From: a virus
Lineage: Duplodnaviria > Heunggongvirae > Uroviricota > Caudoviricetes
Virus record (IMG/VR): IMGVR_UViG_648276652_000012
Reading direction: 5' to 3' (one strand)
DNA length: 21,453 nt
Part shown: piece by piece, positions 11,000 to 19,253 of the stretch
How the letters are laid out: every line of letters starts with the position of its first letter
How positions within the stretch are numbered: the first letter of the stretch is position 1
Program-made: the position numbers and the translations under genes
The notes under the pieces: model-generated
Databases searched by the model: none
Told to the model about the DNA's origin: nothing
What the model saw: only the letters and a program-made list of their open reading frames with translations

Positions 11000-11251
11000 T
11001 TAGTCCTGATTTTTATCCACCCTGAGTAGTTCGCGCAGAGCAAAGGCATCCCCTTTTCTGGCAAGCTTAAACAATGCCGCTCGTAACTCGGCTTCACCTT
11101 TCGCTCTGCCCTTACGGATGGCCGCATAAAAATCTGTCATTGCTTCCCGATTTTCTTTCAGTCGGTTCAGATCAACATCCAGAACGTCAGCGATTTGTTG
11201 TGCAGTCATCCGGCACGCTGCCAGAGACTCGACTTTCGAATACGGAATCAT
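11000..11251 (-). CDS. small hypothetical protein with a possible helix-turn-helix
   Basis: 83-aa ORF ending 3 nt before the small terminase start; ATG at 11251 has GGGGGTG upstream. Overlaps the 3' end of the upstream gene by 65 nt, so the start is uncertain. Confidence 0.4.
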   Translation of the reverse strand: MIPYSKVESLAACRMTAQQIADVLDVDLNRLKENREAMTDFYAAIRKGRAKGEAELRAALFKLARKGDAFALRELLRVDKNQD

Positions 11252-12119
11252 TTGTCACCCCCATTGATATGCAGGGTGTCTTCTTCCTGTATTTTTCGTG
11301 AAGGATTTTTACTGCAGCGTTGTTCCAGGTGACCTGATGGTGAATGCGTTTATGGCTGGCACCCATCAGTGAGATTTTTACGCACGACGGCGAATACATG
11401 ACGGAGTAAAAACTTTTAACGTAGGTTCCGGAATCCAGATACAGCTCGGTCATTCCGCCGCTGTTTTTCTGCGTCTGTTTCTGCCCTAACTGGACAGCAC
11501 CGATCGTCATAAACAATTCACCACAGCGACCGAGATTCGTGTACGTATTCACATCCTCGTTAATGCGCCCCATGAATGAGAACGGTCGATCAACCGAACA
11601 GATAAAGCTGTTCATTGCCTTGCGTTTCACCCACGAAGCATGGCCGCCATTGTCACCAAGAAAATCCCCGCCCTGCGACATAGCGATGGAAAGCGCGGGT
11701 ATTGATTCGTAATACGCCAGCATTTCAGAAAGGATCGCATCCAGTTTCCTTATCGGGAAATAGGCCTGGTCATAGTTGCGATCCACCCGAAACTGGAACT
11801 CGTGATAATCATCATCGAGCTGAATGAAGTATTTACACCCGACCAGTTTTGCCAGGTCGAAACAGGCATTACGGGCGTAAAAAATTGAGCGGCGATCACC
11901 AAAATTATCGGCTTCGTCAAAACGACTGGCAATATCGGCTTTGGAAAATACCAGCACCTGTTCACCAAATTCAGCCATGTACTGATGCCGTGTCTTATCT
12001 TCATCATCAACAACGATAAAAATTTTCCCGGTATAGCCAGCACGACGCAACGTCCGGTAAGTCAGAACTTTGTCCGGTCGCCCGTGAGTCAGAATAAAGG
12101 CGCAAAAATCATCACGCAT
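11187..12119 (-). CDS. GT-A-like putative nucleotide-sugar transferase (glycosyltransferase motifs)
   Basis: N-terminal FILTHGRPDKV...KIFIVVDDED resembles the GT2-type sugar-nucleotide binding signature; a downstream QLDDDYHEF resembles a DXD motif. No predicted transmembrane stretch. Start set at the ATG at 12119, preceded by GGAGGAGGAGGAGG. Motif-based call, not verified. Confidence 0.5.
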   Translation of the reverse strand: MRDDFCAFILTHGRPDKVLTYRTLRRAGYTGKIFIVVDDEDKTRHQYMAEFGEQVLVFSKADIASRFDEADNFGDRRSIFYARNACFDLAKLVGCKYFIQLDDDYHEFQFRVDRNYDQAYFPIRKLDAILSEMLAYYESIPALSIAMSQGGDFLGDNGGHASWVKRKAMNSFICSVDRPFSFMGRINEDVNTYTNLGRCGELFMTIGAVQLGQKQTQKNSGGMTELYLDSGTYVKSFYSVMYSPSCVKISLMGASHKRIHHQVTWNNAAVKILHEKYRKKTPCISMGVTNDSVFESRVSGSVPDDCTTNR

Positions 12120-12906
12120 ATTCCTCCTCCTCCTCCCCGCCATGCATGATCTCCACCATGCGCTGCGTCATTCGGACAAATCCATTTTCAATAGCCTGCT
12201 GATAATCAATGATCACCAGCGCCGACTCCTCGAAAAGGCACTGAATTTCAGCGGGGGCATGAGCGTAATAGTCCGCAATTCTGCTGAAATTAAACACTGT
12301 GTGACGTTCTGCCGCACACAGGAGGAATTTCTCAATATCAGGATCAAGGGACGCCGAACGTATCCGGCTGATCAGCTCCTGAGTTTTCGTATCGTCGTAC
12401 AGTTCACTGATATCCGGTTTACCGCCCGACGGCTCATAAACAGGCGTATCAATTTTCGTCGTATACGGCTCCTCCTCATTTCCTGTACCGGGCAAAACAT
12501 CCGTCAACAGTTCATCAATTTCTGTCGGGATGAAGCCTGTCAGGGAGACATCAAAATCAGCATTGATTAGGTCCGACAGCTCCATCCGCAACAGATCTTC
12601 ATCCCAGCCAGCATTCATCGGCAGGCGATTATCTGCCAGGCGGTACGCCTTTTTCTGCTCATCCGTCAGGCCAGACAGAACAATGACCGGAACAGAATCC
12701 ATTTTGAGCATTTCAGCCGCCATAACACGACCGTGACCCGCAATAATTTCGCCCTTTTCGTCAATCAGCACCGGATTAGTCCAGCCGAATTGCTTAATAC
12801 TTTCTACCAGTTGTGCCACCTGCTCAGGGCTGTGCGTCCTGGCGTTGTGCGCATACGGTGACAATTCTTGTAATGGGCGATAGACTATCTTTAATTTCTC
12901 GCTCAT
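12112..12906 (-). CDS. ParB-like nuclease domain (ParB/Srx N-terminal domain) protein
   Basis: N-terminal region PLQELSPYAHNARTHSPEQVAQLVESIKQFGWTNPVLIDEKGEIIAGHGRVMAA fits the ParB/sulfiredoxin-fold pattern; acidic C-terminus (GGEEEEEYA). Confidence 0.7.
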   Translation of the reverse strand: MSEKLKIVYRPLQELSPYAHNARTHSPEQVAQLVESIKQFGWTNPVLIDEKGEIIAGHGRVMAAEMLKMDSVPVIVLSGLTDEQKKAYRLADNRLPMNAGWDEDLLRMELSDLINADFDVSLTGFIPTEIDELLTDVLPGTGNEEEPYTTKIDTPVYEPSGGKPDISELYDDTKTQELISRIRSASLDPDIEKFLLCAAERHTVFNFSRIADYYAHAPAEIQCLFEESALVIIDYQQAIENGFVRMTQRMVEIMHGGEEEEEYA

Positions 12907-12920
12907 ACAGCCTTGCTTTA

Positions 12921-12958
12921 TGAATAAAACGCACCCCAGCAGCCAGTGCTACTGGGGA
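12921..12958 (-). terminator. rho-independent terminator downstream of trkG
   Basis: Minus strand reads ccccagtagcactggctgctgggg (imperfect roughly 10-bp stem) followed by tgcgttttattcat. Confidence 0.55.
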
Positions 12959-13043
12959 CGGAGGGGTTGCTGGTAAAGTTAGGTATTGGATCAATGAGTG
13001 AGTCAACATAATATTAAACTCACAATTATAAATCAGCCATATA

Positions 13044-14501
13044 TTAGGAGCGCCAAAAAAAACCTGAAAACAATATAATAACAGGATAAATTTCAAGGCG
13101 ACCAAGAATCATAGCTATGCACATTAAACATTTTGCAATGTCATTAAGCACTCCGAATGACGATGCAGTAGCCCCAAAACCTAATCCCATATTATTAATA
13201 CATGCAGCCACTGTTGCAAATGATGTAAGAAAATCATATCCCATACCATTTAACACCAGTATAAAAAACACCGTGAAGAGAGTATAAAGAAAAAAGAAAC
13301 TCCATACAGACCTCATTACACGATCTGTAACTATCTTCCCTCCTACATTTACACTCAACAACGCTCTGGGATGAGAAAGCTGATTTATCTCGTGTTTGCT
13401 TTGTTTGAAAAGTATAAGAAATCGAAGTGACTTAATTCCACCACAAGTTGAACCTATACATCCCCCAAAGAAACTTGACAACAGCAAAAACACTATCGTG
13501 TGCGTGGGCCAACTTGCATAATCCTGCGTAGCTAAACCATTATCAGTGAGCATGGAGCTGGCAAGAAAAAACGAATGAATAAAACTTCCATGCAAGTCAT
13601 ACATACCTATATGCCAGACCTGGAAAGAGGTAACAATGATCACCCCTAAGGCTATTAACAGAAAGAAACGAAGTTCAATATCTCTGATTAAAGGTTTTAT
13701 CGTTTTCCTGCTAATAACAATATACCAAAGAGTGAAGTTGAAAGCCGATAGCAGGGAAAAAGAACCAGCCACCAGCTCAACCAAATAGTTATTAAAATAT
13801 CCGATACTCTCGCTATGAGTTGAGAAACCACCAAGCGAAACTGTGGAAATCCCGTGACAAATAGCATCAAACAAAGGCATTCCTGCAAGTCTATAACAGA
13901 CAATACAAGCAATACCTAATAAAGAATAAGTTATCCACAGTGTCCGTGACGTATCGGCCAGGCGGGGAGTGAGTTTGTCATCCTTAAATGGCCCCGGCAT
14001 TTCTGACTGATAAAGCTTTGCACCACCAATACCCAATAATGGCAATACAGCAACCGCCAGAACAATAACTCCTAAACCACCTATAAAATTTAACTGTGAC
14101 CGATAGTACAAATATGCCCGAGGTAATGAACTAACATCATCAATTACAGTTGCTCCTGTTGTTGTTATTCCAGAAACCCCTTCAAACAGAGCATCAATGA
14201 ACGTTAAATTAAGTTCTGAGTCAATCCATAAAGGGAATGCACTAATAACAGAAAACAAAATCCAAAACATTACAATTATAATAAACCCATCACGGGTACG
14301 TAATTGAATGCCAGATTTCTTAGTTGTATACCACGCTCCGCCACCAATGCAAAAAAATATAACGAAAGTTATAAAGAAAACGAACAGGCTTTTTTCTTTA
14401 TAAAACAATGCTACAACCATTGGTGGCAACATTGAAAGACTATAGAGCCAAACCAGGAACCCACACATATGAGTAACAACTCTTACATGAGATGTATTCA
14501 T
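13044..14501 (-). CDS. trkG: Trk-system potassium uptake protein TrkG (TrkH/KtrB family)
   Basis: 485-aa polytopic membrane protein starting MNTSHVRVVTHMCGFLVWLYSL..., recognised from memory as E. coli TrkG. Markedly AT-rich compared with flanking phage genes. Start trimmed from the TTG at 14519 to the ATG at 14501. Confidence 0.9.
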   Translation of the reverse strand: MNTSHVRVVTHMCGFLVWLYSLSMLPPMVVALFYKEKSLFVFFITFVIFFCIGGGAWYTTKKSGIQLRTRDGFIIIVMFWILFSVISAFPLWIDSELNLTFIDALFEGVSGITTTGATVIDDVSSLPRAYLYYRSQLNFIGGLGVIVLAVAVLPLLGIGGAKLYQSEMPGPFKDDKLTPRLADTSRTLWITYSLLGIACIVCYRLAGMPLFDAICHGISTVSLGGFSTHSESIGYFNNYLVELVAGSFSLLSAFNFTLWYIVISRKTIKPLIRDIELRFFLLIALGVIIVTSFQVWHIGMYDLHGSFIHSFFLASSMLTDNGLATQDYASWPTHTIVFLLLSSFFGGCIGSTCGGIKSLRFLILFKQSKHEINQLSHPRALLSVNVGGKIVTDRVMRSVWSFFFLYTLFTVFFILVLNGMGYDFLTSFATVAACINNMGLGFGATASSFGVLNDIAKCLMCIAMILGRLEIYPVIILFSGFFWRS

Positions 14502-14638
14502 ATCTAAATATTCTTTCAATTATAACCACCTTGCTGCAATATTATGATTATACTGTATAAAATTTAACTCCTCTTAGATCTTACTTCACTGTTCCTTATG
14601 AAACAATCATCAAAATGAATCATATTGTAGTTAAGATT

Positions 14639-15103
14639 TTACTTTAAACACTGCTCGGTTATGTATTGCTGAGCACCTTCAAGTTGGGCCTGCATCATTA
14701 CCAGTCGTTCCCGGAGGGTGAAATAATCCCGTTCAGCGGTGTCTGCCAGTCGGGGGGAGGCTGCATTATCCACGCCGGAGGCGGTGGTGGCTTCACGCAC
14801 TGACTGACAGACTGCTTTGATGTGCAACCGACGACGACCAGCGGCAACATCATCACGCAGAACATCATTTTCAGCTTTCGCATCAGCTAACTCCTTCGTG
14901 TATTTTGCATCGAGCGCAGCAACATCACGCTGACGCATCTGCATGTCAGTAATTGCCGCGTTCGCCAGCTTCAGTTCTCTGGCATTTTTGTCGCGCTGTT
15001 CTTTGTAGGCGATGGCGTTATCACGGTAATGATTAACACCCCATGACAGGCAGACGACGATGCAGATAACCAGAGCGGAGATAATCGCGGTTACTCTGTT
15101 CAT
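14639..15103 (-). CDS. Rz: Rz i-spanin
   Basis: N-terminal transmembrane segment then a coiled-coil periplasmic domain; ATG at 15103 overlaps the endolysin stop (ATGA). Confidence 0.85.
14698..14883 (-). CDS. Rz1: Rz1 o-spanin, embedded out of frame inside Rz
   Basis: [20 protein letters not shown] lipoprotein signal with a lipobox cysteine, followed by a proline-rich PPPPP segment; entirely nested in Rz. Confidence 0.85.
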
Positions 15104-15597
15104 TGCTGACCCCACAAACAGATTTCACGCTCAATCTCACGACGAGTCATGAGACCTTTCCATTGCTTACCGCCAGCATATGTCCAGCGACGTAGCTGAT
15201 CACATGCGCCTTTGATATCGCCCTGGTTTATTTTGCGAAGAAGCGTCGATGTTCTGAAATTGCCAGCACCCACGTTGTAAACGAATGAGTAAAGAGCGCC
15301 GCGCGTTGTTTCCGGTATATCGACTTTGATGTACGGGTTAATTTGTCTGGCGACCGTGGCAAGGTCTTTATTCAAGAGTGTTTTGCATTCTGCTTTGGTA
15401 TACGTTTTACCGAGCATGATGTCTTTTCCTGTATGCCCGTGACATACAGTCCATACACCAACAATATCTTTGTATGGTATGTAGCTGACACCTTCCAGAC
15501 CATCGTTACCACTTGGGCCAGTGATTAACACTGATGCTATAGCAATTGCTCCGCCACCAATAGCAGCAGCAACGGCTTTTCGTAATGATGGAGGCAT
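15100..15597 (-). CDS. R: SAR endolysin (phage 21 R-type lysozyme)
   Basis: 165 aa; weakly hydrophobic Gly/Ala-rich N-terminal signal-anchor-release segment ([20 protein letters not shown]) followed by a lysozyme domain; recognised from memory as R21-like. Confidence 0.9.
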
Positions 15598-15812
15598 TAT
15601 TCACCTCTCGCAGCCTTGCGCTTATCTTCTTTAATCTTGAAATAAAGATTTGTCAGATACGTCAGCAGGCCAAATACCAGGCTACCCAGCACACCTATTG
15701 CCGCCCACTGTGAGGGCGTGACTTTATCGAGCAACTGTAAAAACCAGTATCCCGCACTACCCGCGGATGTTCCGTAGGCAATGCCAGTAGAGATTTTGTC
15801 CATTGATTTCAT
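15597..15812 (-). CDS. S: pinholin (phage 21 S-type holin) with dual-start motif
   Basis: 71 aa beginning MKSMDK (Met1 and Met4 starts), two transmembrane segments; GGAGG 7 nt upstream; stop overlaps the R start (TAATG). Confidence 0.9.
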
Positions 15813-15930
15813 AGCAACGCCTCCGCAAGTAACGGATTGCGTAGTTCTTATATTGGGAAGGGGAAAAAAGAAGGCCGCAGCGTAACTATCACTGATGAAT
15901 TCAGGACAGCCAGTGGCTCCGGCTCAGTTA

Positions 15931-16006
15931 TGGTGCTGGTTAACGGACTTGAACCGCTACCCATTCGCTTACAAGGCGACTGCTCTACCATTGGAGCTAA
16001 ACCAGC
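15931..16006 (-). tRNA. tRNA, anticodon UGU by manual fold (tRNA-Thr)
   Basis: Minus-strand 76-nt sequence GCTGGTT-TA-GCTC-CAATGGTA-GAGC-A-GTCGC-CTTGTAA-GCGAA-TGGGT-AGCGG-TTCAAGT-CCGTT-AACCAGC-A-CCA. Perfect 7-bp acceptor and 4-bp D stems, T8/A9, GG in the D-loop, TTCAAGT T-loop, encoded CCA. Anticodon assignment rests on hand folding. Confidence 0.7.
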
Positions 16007-16011
16007 ATATT

Positions 16012-16086
16012 TGGCGGGACAGCGTGGACTCGAACCACGATAAGAAGGTTAACAGCCTTCCGTAATGACCTTTATGCGACTGACCC
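16012..16086 (-). other. degenerate tRNA-like element (possible pseudo-tRNA or unusual tRNA, anticodon GUU if folded)
   Basis: Good T-arm (CGTGG-TTCGAGT-CCACG), perfect anticodon stem (GAAGG/CCTTC, loop CTGTTAA), 3' CCA; but a T-T mismatch in the acceptor stem and a poor D stem. Confidence 0.3.
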
Positions 16087-16087
16087 A

Positions 16088-16125
16088 AACAAAAAAAGCC
16101 ACCGTTGCAACTTAAGAGTCACTAA
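16088..16125 (-). terminator. putative tR'-like terminator downstream of the late promoter
   Basis: Minus strand reads gccgtt...gttgcaacggtggc followed by ttttttt gtttggg; the stem is imperfect but the 7-T run is clear. Confidence 0.4.
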
Positions 16126-16142
16126 CGGCAGCTTACCTTCTA

Positions 16143-16172
16143 ATTATGGCTAAATGGATAATTGCATGTCAA
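16143..16172 (-). promoter_or_regulatory. candidate late promoter pR' (sigma-70; consensus -35, 18-nt spacer, near-consensus -10) overlapping the Q 3' end
   Basis: Minus strand: TTGACA (plus 16167-16172) - 18 nt - CATAAT (plus 16143-16148). The Q stop codon lies between them; the T-run terminator follows about 45 nt downstream. Confidence 0.6.
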
Positions 16173-16668
16173 GGCTTTTAACAGCAACATGCTTAACTTT
16201 CTCAACACGTTTACGCATTTTGAAAGCATTTTGCATTGGCTGGTACAAAACAAATAACGACGCTTTCAGGATGTCGTCAATTTCGTTTCTACAGGTTGCC
16301 AGTGAAGGTTTTCTCCATCCCTCGCCACCACGTCCACACATCTTGCGTGGCTTTGCAGTCGCGTGATAGTAGGATGCAATTGCTCGCTTAGATGAACCAT
16401 GAGCGTAGTAGCTGAGGAGGATGCCAAAGGCTTTTTTGTCAATGCACATGACGGAATCGACGACCTGAGAAATCAACATTCCATCATCATCATTACACAT
16501 TGGCCTTGTCATAACTCTTCCCGGCTCTACGCTCTCCATGAACTTAGCTATTACGCTGCTCATGCGCTTTTCCAGACGACCTGAATAAACCCATGCGCCC
16601 CACAGTTCAAGCCAGCCATTCAGCCACTCGTGCTGTTCTTTGGTGAGGTTTAGTTCTCTTATGCCCAT
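16150..16668 (-). CDS. Q: late antiterminator Q (phage 21/82-type)
   Basis: Motifs ELWGAW, CNDDDGM and LLSYYAHG recalled from Q-family proteins; sits between ninG and the lysis genes. Start set at the ATG at 16668 (GGGAGAAGG upstream) rather than the GTG at 16725, which overlaps ninG. Confidence 0.8.
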   Translation of the reverse strand: MGIRELNLTKEQHEWLNGWLELWGAWVYSGRLEKRMSSVIAKFMESVEPGRVMTRPMCNDDDGMLISQVVDSVMCIDKKAFGILLSYYAHGSSKRAIASYYHATAKPRKMCGRGGEGWRKPSLATCRNEIDDILKASLFVLYQPMQNAFKMRKRVEKVKHVAVKSLDMQLSI

Positions 16669-18119: not shown

Positions 18120-18292
18120 TTCCTCGCACGATGTCTTAGCCACCGGATATCCCACAGGTGAGCCGTGTAGTTGAAGGTTTTTACGTCAGATTCTTTTGGG
18201 ATTGGCTTGCGTTTATTTCTGGAGCGTTTCGTTGGAAGGTATTTGCAGTTTTCGCAGATGATGTCGGTGAAACTTCGTCGCTGTCGCCTCAT
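18116..18292 (-). CDS. ninE: NinE
   Basis: 58 aa, [58 protein letters not shown]; recognised from memory as lambda NinE-like. ATG overlaps the methylase stop (ATGA). Confidence 0.85.
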
Positions 18293-18816
18293 GCCGCCCT
18301 CCTGACGCCCTGCCCGATCGCTATCAATGCCGCTTTGGATACGGTAGTAAACATCCGTCGAGGACTGATGAACGGTCGCCAAATCAGCAGCATGGAGCCT
18401 TTGCTGTTTCCCTTCTTCTCCAGCCCCGTCGATGGTTCGATAAAATTAATCCGTCCATCAGTGATAATGCGAACTTCGTCGACACTCTCCAGAGCCTTGC
18501 TGAACCATCCGACTGACATATCCTCTGGCACAAGCATCACTACCGTCTGTCGCTGTTGTATGCACTGCTCAGCGGCTTTTTCCACCCACGGCCTGATATT
18601 GCTGTACGGTGGGTTATTCCAGATTGCACCGTGGCTTACCCACTCAGAATTGAGCGCGTCGTCGGCCTCAGTTAGCCAGTGAGCACACAGAGCATTTTTG
18701 TCGCTCGCTGCCGAATCCAGCCAGAATCCAAACTCAATATCCAGTGCATCAAAAAGCCAAAGCGGCGTTTGCCAGCAGTCCTTGTCGTGTGCTGGCGTAT
18801 TTGATTTGATAGTCAT
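18289..18816 (-). CDS. phage-type DNA N6-adenine methyltransferase (Dam-like)
   Basis: 175 aa with DKDCWQTP near the N-terminus and the NPPY catalytic motif; ATG at 18816 overlaps the ninB stop (ATGA). Occupies the slot where lambda has ninC/ninD. Confidence 0.8.
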
Positions 18817-19253
18817 GCAGCCCGATCTCCCCATCTCGCTTTCCACTCCAGAGCCAGTCTCGCTTCGTCTGACCACTTAACGCCACGCTCTGTACCGAAT
18901 GCCTGTATAAGCTCTAATAGCTCCGCAAATTCGCCTACACGCATCCTGCTGGTTGACTGGCCTATTACCACAAAGCCATTCCCGGCAAGGTTAGGAACAA
19001 CATCCTGCTGCTTTAATGCTGCGGTAAACACACACTTCCAGCTTTCTGCATCCAGCCAGCGACCATGCCATTCAACCTGACGAGAGACGTCACCTAAGCA
19101 GGCCCATAGCTTCCTGTTTTGGTCTAAGCTGCGGTTGCGTTCCTGAATGGTTACTACGATTGGTTTGGTTGGGTCTGGAAGGATTTGCTGTACTGCGTGA
19201 ATAGCGTTTTGCTGATGTGCTGGAGATCGAATTTCAAAGGTTAGTTTTTTCAT
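18813..19253 (-). CDS. ninB: NinB (Orf) recombination protein
   Basis: 146 aa, MKKLTFEIRSPAHQQNAIHAVQQILPDPTKPIVVTIQERNRSLDQNRKLWACLGDVSRQVEWHGRW...; recognised from memory as lambda NinB. Confidence 0.9.
   Translation of the reverse strand: MKKLTFEIRSPAHQQNAIHAVQQILPDPTKPIVVTIQERNRSLDQNRKLWACLGDVSRQVEWHGRWLDAESWKCVFTAALKQQDVVPNLAGNGFVVIGQSTSRMRVGEFAELLELIQAFGTERGVKWSDEARLALEWKARWGDRAA

Follow-up and report, generated by a model that had tools for sequence, protein, structure and literature searches.

The trkG cassette of a Rac-family lambdoid prophage: limits, terminator and late-operon context

Since 1991, the trkG gene of the Rac prophage has served as a standard example of a host-fitness gene carried by a prophage. 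Add-on gene units of phage genomes are called morons. The bor gene of lambda and phage 21 and other lambdoid morons resemble trkG in that a gene of benefit to the host lies directly after Rz/Rz1, deviates in composition, is expressed from the prophage and probably has its own expression signals; in phage 21, bor sits after Rz. The two cases differ in orientation and cargo. Transcription of bor runs against the late operon, whereas trkG is oriented along it and must be read through in late transcription, and bor encodes a small lipoprotein whereas trkG encodes a 12-helix transporter.

In E. coli K-12, trkG (b1363) is located in the cryptic Rac prophage and is regarded as foreign, with 38% GC compared with 53% for trkH (PMC9898762). 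The K-12 protein confers Na+-dependent K+ uptake and is able to substitute for TrkH, the uptake has been reported to depend on TrkA, and the gene is partly repressed by H-NS (PMC9898762). Its paralogue TrkH, known from E. coli and by the V. parahaemolyticus structures 3PJZ and 4J9U, belongs to the same family and has the same predicted fold and the same pore-loop motifs. Low GC content, H-NS control and transport properties of trkG are already published, and the importance of a further trkG locus lies mainly in its correct annotation.

We analysed a stretch of viral DNA of 21,453 nucleotides (the window; IMG/VR record IMGVR_UViG_648276652_000012). As a whole the window is a new mosaic (best match: 88% coverage), whereas its trkG region is commonplace. 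The segment at 12907-14638 is the trkG cassette of a Rac-family lambdoid prophage, consists of essentially K-12 DNA and is already known. What we add are the probable limits of the cassette, the assignment of its terminator to the phage backbone, a flag on the annotated start and a corrected view of the packaging module, none of which changes the verdict that the cassette was known before.

Match to the K-12 Rac locus and prevalence

The segment is the exact interval from the start of a ParB-like gene (12112-12906) to the stop of Rz (14639-15115). A preliminary description of this DNA had placed a potassium uptake gene between the spanin genes and the ParB-like gene, and it lies exactly there, between the Rz stop at 14639 and the ParB-like start at 12906. 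The features of the locus, in the direction of transcription, are as follows.

16092-16172, minus strand: late promoter region (TTGACA-18-CATAAT at 16172-16143) and tR'-like terminator (about 16132-16092)
14639-15115, minus strand: Rz, inner-membrane spanin, the upstream flank (Pfam Phage_lysis, 4e-53)
14698-14883, minus strand: Rz1, embedded in Rz (Pfam Rz1, 2e-19)
14520-14638, minus strand: AT-rich leader and putative promoter region of the cassette (23-30% GC; consensus -10 TATAAT at 14552-14547; identical to K-12)
14526-14532, minus strand: Shine-Dalgarno-like AAGGTGG, 6 nt 5' of the TTG, read off the sequence
14502-14519, minus strand: possible N-terminal extension MKEYLD of 6 codons (a TTG start at 14519-14517 would give 491 aa)
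13044-14501, minus strand: trkG CDS according to the K-12 annotation (485 aa from an ATG; coordinates include the stop codon)
12977-13043, minus strand: AT-rich 3' untranslated end of the presumably imported cassette (GC about 0.30; dissimilar to trkG-less relatives upstream of 12976)
12907-12976, minus strand: putative backbone segment ahead of the ParB-like gene, common to trkG-less relatives and holding a terminator-like hairpin
12112-12906, minus strand: ParB-like N-terminal-domain protein of 264 aa, the downstream flank (Pfam ParB_N, 1.2e-6; full-length ynaK)

Over 12860-14724, the window departs from the K-12 Rac locus by three substitutions in about 1865 aligned nt, of which two are silent changes within trkG and one falls in the 3' spacer; protein, leader and 3' region are those of K-12. 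The gene order is also conserved. K-12 Rac is annotated as rzpR (a pseudogene)/rzoR, trkG and ynaK, corresponding to Rz/Rz1, trkG and the ParB-like gene of the window, so that the likeness to the Rac trkG locus proposed at the outset extends to synteny. According to its annotation, the prophage of strain SE11 has the gene order of the window too, with intact flanks and a terminase/head module.

The window differs from K-12 Rac in what surrounds this core. Unlike Rac, it has a full-length Rz and Rz1 and, downstream, a complete terminase/head module. Its ParB-like protein of 264 aa compares with an 87-aa YnaK remnant in K-12, the match covering residues 1-89 only, and its early region carries lambda O and P instead of ydaU/ydaV. 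Upstream of trkG, none of Q, pR', S and R is present in K-12 Rac. The preliminary description had set the window apart from Rac by a lambda-like replication and packaging backbone. The first half of this description stands, as the replication genes are lambda O and P and the Q-pR'-tRNA-S-R-Rz region is lambda/21-like. Its second half does not, as the head/packaging module consists of a T4-type TerL, a DUF4055 portal, a MuF-like protein and a P22-type coat. We conclude that this structural module is the native Rac-type one, mostly lost in K-12.

Nor is the contrast with Rac special, because the full-length ParB-like gene and the adjoining glycosyltransferase gene occur together in 888 complete E. 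coli genomes and trkG in 1550. The 1732-bp segment was found in 1550 of 5426 complete E. coli genomes, with at least 1515 records at 99% identity or more, and the ParB-like gene in 1579. In addition, trkG is present between these neighbours in ten deposited phage records. The K-12 arrangement is accordingly a deletion remnant of a widespread intact module of lysis genes, trkG, ParB-like gene, glycosyltransferase gene and terminase.

The prophages that carry trkG are often defective, and some trkG copies have been struck by insertion sequences. In one genome (NZ_CP159152.1) an IS5-like element divides the match to the segment into two parts. In another locus (L037, positions 1-268) the native leader and Shine-Dalgarno sequence have been removed by an IS3-family element whose end lies 8 nt 5' of the TTG. 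One might suppose from such copies that trkG is a decaying, non-functional remnant that is carried passively. We give this reading practically no credence: the frame in the window is intact and differs from K-12 by the two silent changes only, the conservation across at least 1515 records at 99% identity or more speaks against decay, and the K-12 allele is experimentally active (PMC9898762).

In one Shigella flexneri locus (CP182557.1), the products of terL, terS and the glycosyltransferase gene match their counterparts in the window at 100% identity. The alignment of the DNA, however, opens 40 gaps over 9.75 kb, with apparent frameshifts in trkG, Rz and the ParB-like gene; these could reflect either assembly error or real decay in Shigella.

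Identity, start codon and composition of trkG

The single long open reading frame of the segment spans 13044-14519 on the minus strand and encodes 485 aa when counted from the ATG at 14501. Its product matches the Pfam TrkH family (PF02386) over profile positions 3-500 of 502 with an E-value of 5e-145 (484 bits; cut-off: 27) and is identical to K-12 TrkG at 485 of 485 residues (100%), which confirms the earlier naming as a trkG potassium uptake gene. The product also passes the cut-off of the NCBIfam TrkH family TIGR00933 (415 bits; cut-off: 331) but misses that of the TrkH equivalog NF008020 (449.7 bits; cut-off: 866), so that it belongs to a separate TrkG clade and is not to be filed as TrkH. 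It aligns collinearly over 479 residues with the solved V. parahaemolyticus TrkH (3PJZ/4J9U; E-value 1e-120). Four pore-loop motifs (TTTGA, SLGGF, TDNGL and NNMGLG) are invariant across an 11-sequence alignment and align with the motifs of the solved TrkH. Following the 3PJZ structure, we assign these motifs, with their conserved glycines, to the selectivity filter formed by four pore-loop repeats (M1-P-M2). The partner gene trkA is a host gene and is absent from the window.

The annotated start codon may be wrong. Six codons upstream of the ATG, a TTG at 14519 opens the same frame and would give a product of 491 aa, which is the length of many TrkG homologues. At this position, the window, E. 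fergusonii, Citrobacter and Enterobacter have TTG, TTG, TTG and GTG, respectively, whereas the position of the annotated ATG reads ATG, ATG, CTG and TTA. The motif AAGGTGG precedes the TTG, and no Shine-Dalgarno motif comparable to it lies ahead of the ATG at 14501. E. fergusonii has GGAGG at the matching site, and in both sequences the Shine-Dalgarno motif is followed by ATAATTG. Because the TTG position is conserved, many homologues have 491 aa and AAGGTGG precedes the TTG rather than the ATG, it is plausible that translation of trkG begins at TTG 14519.

A further open reading frame of 93 aa (12824-13105, minus strand) covers the trkG stop, the 3' untranslated region, the terminator and the start of the ParB-like gene. 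We regard it as spurious.

The segment has a GC content of 0.374 (37.4%), compared with 0.485 (48.5%) in the rest of the window. Among other windows of 1732 bp the minimum was 0.455, with a standard deviation of 0.014, placing the trkG segment about 8 standard deviations low. The drop begins at the Rz stop. The GC content at third codon positions (GC3) of trkG was 0.32, compared with 0.40-0.55 in 13 neighbouring genes. The gene is thus markedly more AT-rich than its neighbours, as had been noted before.

TrkG is rich in Phe, Ile and Leu, and the first and second codon positions are low in GC as well (0.42 and 0.40). Low GC could therefore simply follow from the amino acids that make up a strongly hydrophobic membrane protein and say nothing of foreign origin. 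We consider this extremely unlikely, as it is GC3, largely free of protein constraint, that is lowest of all. The non-coding DNA is AT-rich too (leader: 23-30% GC; 3' untranslated region: about 30%), the change in composition falls on the homology breakpoints at 12976 and 14638, and E. coli's own trkH, which encodes a protein of the same family, has 53% GC (PMC9898762).

A foreign origin agrees with the distribution of homologues. The nearest non-identical proteins are those of E. fergusonii (79% identity), Citrobacter (77%) and Pectobacterium (75%); further homologues at 61-73% occur in Pantoea, Enterobacter (70%), Buttiauxella, Serratia and Xenorhabdus. None of the three homologue surroundings examined was in a prophage context. 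The chromosomal copy of E. fergusonii (GC 0.42) lies between porin genes and a gene of the DJ-1/PfpI family, with a Peptidase_M90 gene adjoining, the Citrobacter copy adjoins genes for dynamin-like GTPases, and the Enterobacter copy, surrounded by ordinary chromosomal genes, has a radical-SAM gene on one side and a multicopper-oxidase gene on the other, near a gene for a topoisomerase IV subunit. The chromosomal TrkG-type genes of Enterobacterales (E. fergusonii, Enterobacter, Buttiauxella and Serratia; 61-79% identity) keep the upstream start position, and that of E. fergusonii also keeps the -10 and Shine-Dalgarno motifs. As the three examined homologues lie outside prophages, TrkG-type genes are ordinary enterobacterial paralogues of trkH. 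The phage trkG was in all likelihood captured from an unsampled lineage, the closest sampled copy having 79% identity.

Limits of the cassette and ownership of the terminator

The downstream limit was derived from 80 IMG/VR loci that encode the ParB-like protein of the window. In 76 of them trkG lies just upstream of the ParB-like gene; it is absent from four (L081, L088, L093 and L098). These four share with the window about 2.9 kb at about 95% identity, comprising the ParB-like gene, the glycosyltransferase gene, an 83-aa open reading frame and the 5' part of terS. The homology starts at window position 12976 in three and at 12929 in the fourth, and upstream of the breakpoint all four have another lysis cassette than the window.

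The DNA thus held in common includes the site at which the preliminary description had reported an intrinsic terminator of trkG (12921-12958). A terminator scan found a terminator-like hairpin there (12957-12934, minus strand) with ten pairs, seven of them G-C, and a loop of 4. Its fold has a free energy of -22.5 kcal/mol (z = -2.6 compared with shuffled sequences). It is directly followed by TGCGTTTTAT, and the T-tract extends down to about 12924 with an interruption (UGCGUUUUAU). The trkG-less loci have a different hairpin and U-tract at the same place. The hairpin with T-tract is accordingly present as described, but it cannot be called trkG's own, being shared with relatives that lack trkG. 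Since trkG-less phages share the terminator DNA, it belongs permanently to the leading end of the ParB-like module and did not arrive with trkG. From the sequence, we predict termination at this backbone element, which would now also end the trkG transcript, and we place the limits of the imported cassette at about 12977-14638.

We looked for an empty site at which this Rz and this ParB-like gene directly adjoin. None was present in the phage collection, in which all records with the ParB-like module carry trkG; the GTDB species representatives yielded only trkG-positive Escherichia/Shigella loci or distant relatives, and IMG/VR only the four trkG-less loci, each behind a different lysis cassette. 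As no relative with both flanks joined turned up in these collections, the upstream junction is set only by composition and the end of Rz. A search for flanking direct or inverted repeats, as expected of a transposon or integron-like insertion, returned only short AT-rich chance matches, and an Rfam scan of the whole window found two tRNAs and no match inside 12907-14638.

In the trkG-positive loci, the DNA shared with the window always extends upstream through Rz; the break lies at the start of Rz in 23 loci, while in 39 it lies at the holin. Therefore trkG, this Rz allele and the ParB-like module move together as one block. Other DNA can occupy the same position: in a relative from Yersinia thracica, two unrelated open reading frames lie between Rz1 and the ParB-like gene. 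In this prophage (L008:4700-5900), the slot before a ParB-like gene of 61% identity holds an open reading frame of 161 aa and a reverse-strand one of 190 aa.

The upstream flank is a mosaic of its own. Rz is identical to that of phage 21 as far as 14714, and similarity ends altogether at the stop codon. The last 75 nt (14639-14713; 25 codons) have about 65% nucleotide identity to phage 21, with the C-terminus still homologous.

Downstream, the ParB-like gene is overlapped by the glycosyltransferase gene (11187-12143, minus strand; Pfam TAGT, TET-associated glycosyltransferase, E-value 6e-35), which PGAP names 'GREB1-related protein'. The two genes sit just before the small terminase gene and, as a pair, are deleted in K-12. 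They could be a DNA-modification pair or a link to packaging.

Expression of trkG within the late operon

All genes of the window are on the minus strand, and from Q onward their order is Q, pR'/tR', two tRNAs, S, R, Rz/Rz1, trkG, ParB-like gene, glycosyltransferase gene, terS, and TerL onward. The late promoter candidate TTGACA-18-CATAAT at 16172-16143 has 11 of 12 matches in a promoter scan and aligns with the annotated pR' -35 of phage 21, and tR', tRNA-Asn, tRNA-Thr and the ribosome-binding site of S are nearly identical to those of phage 21. As the late unit starts at this phage-21-like pR'/tR', trkG does lie inside the late operon, as had been proposed.

Candidate -10 boxes had also been proposed for the spacer at 14520-14638. 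Such hexamers are present (TATGAT at 14624-14619; TATAAT at 14552-14547 and 14524-14519), yet they are expected in DNA of such AT-richness. A scan of 12000-16200 found six promoter-like sites, compared with 8.2±2.7 in shuffled sequences, and this consensus scan did not single out the leader; the best -10 (14552-14547) was without a recognisable -35. The scan by itself therefore establishes no promoter. The sequence GTATAAT upstream of trkG is, however, common to the window and the chromosomal homologue of E. fergusonii.

Evidence for a promoter comes from the literature on the identical K-12 sequence, as do transport activity and H-NS repression. In K-12, expression of trkG comes close to that of trkH and rises through derepression in hns and hns stpA mutants, and a fragment from upstream of trkG drives a luciferase (lux) reporter (PMC9898762). 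We mapped the published primers of this reporter fragment to window positions 14502-15011. The fragment also includes most of Rz, and its part at 14502-14724 is identical in the window and K-12. Since K-12 Rac is without Q, pR', S and R, expression there must stem from a promoter inside the fragment. A literature search for trkG papers on transcription start sites or morons gave nothing relevant.

These data also bear on the view that trkG is without a promoter of its own and is simply one more late-operon gene, made only in lytic growth. Its orientation, that of every late gene, its position downstream of pR' and a promoter scan of the leader with nothing above chance all fit that view. It is nevertheless very unlikely, because K-12 Rac expresses trkG at about trkH level without any upstream Q, pR', S or R, the K-12 fragment drives a reporter (PMC9898762), the leader in the window is identical to that of K-12, and a chromosomal homologue that lies in no phage has the consensus TATAAT as well.

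We favour a captured trkG moron with its own promoter, and consider the following account as a whole highly probable. A gene for a TrkG-type K+ transporter would have been captured from an enterobacterial chromosome together with its AT-rich leader and promoter, and inserted in a slot of variable content, with the lysis cassette (S-R-Rz/Rz1) on one side and the ParB-like gene, the first gene of the packaging region, on the other. In the lysogen, trkG would be transcribed from its own sigma-70 promoter, for which 14552-14547 is the best candidate -10, and would be partly repressed by H-NS. TrkG would then serve as a second Trk membrane subunit that takes up K+ in a Na+-dependent manner with the TrkA (and SapD) of the host. 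Ahead of the ParB-like and terminase genes, the trkG transcript would end at the hairpin and T-tract (12957-12924). Once the prophage is induced, RNA polymerase modified by Q is expected to read from pR' through trkG and the terminator into the head genes.

Being oriented along the late operon, trkG would be produced in excess when Q antiterminates late transcription, and its product could restore K+ in late infection. Active Rac-family phages might accordingly keep trkG because it also serves the phage by late K+ restoration, with a protein that starts at the TTG (491 aa); this extension of the account is speculative and, in our judgement, rather unlikely.

The Q gene and the -10/Q-binding region are unlike those of phage 21, suggesting that the late leader common to both is served by Q proteins of different specificity. 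The two tRNA genes, tRNA-Thr(TGT) and tRNA-Asn(GTT), lie at 15931-16086 on the minus strand, between the late promoter/tR' and the holin. A gene for a Dam-type N6-adenine methyltransferase (18289-18876, minus strand; Pfam Dam, E-value 2e-64) is located in the nin region, with the replication genes on one side and NinX/NinG on the other.
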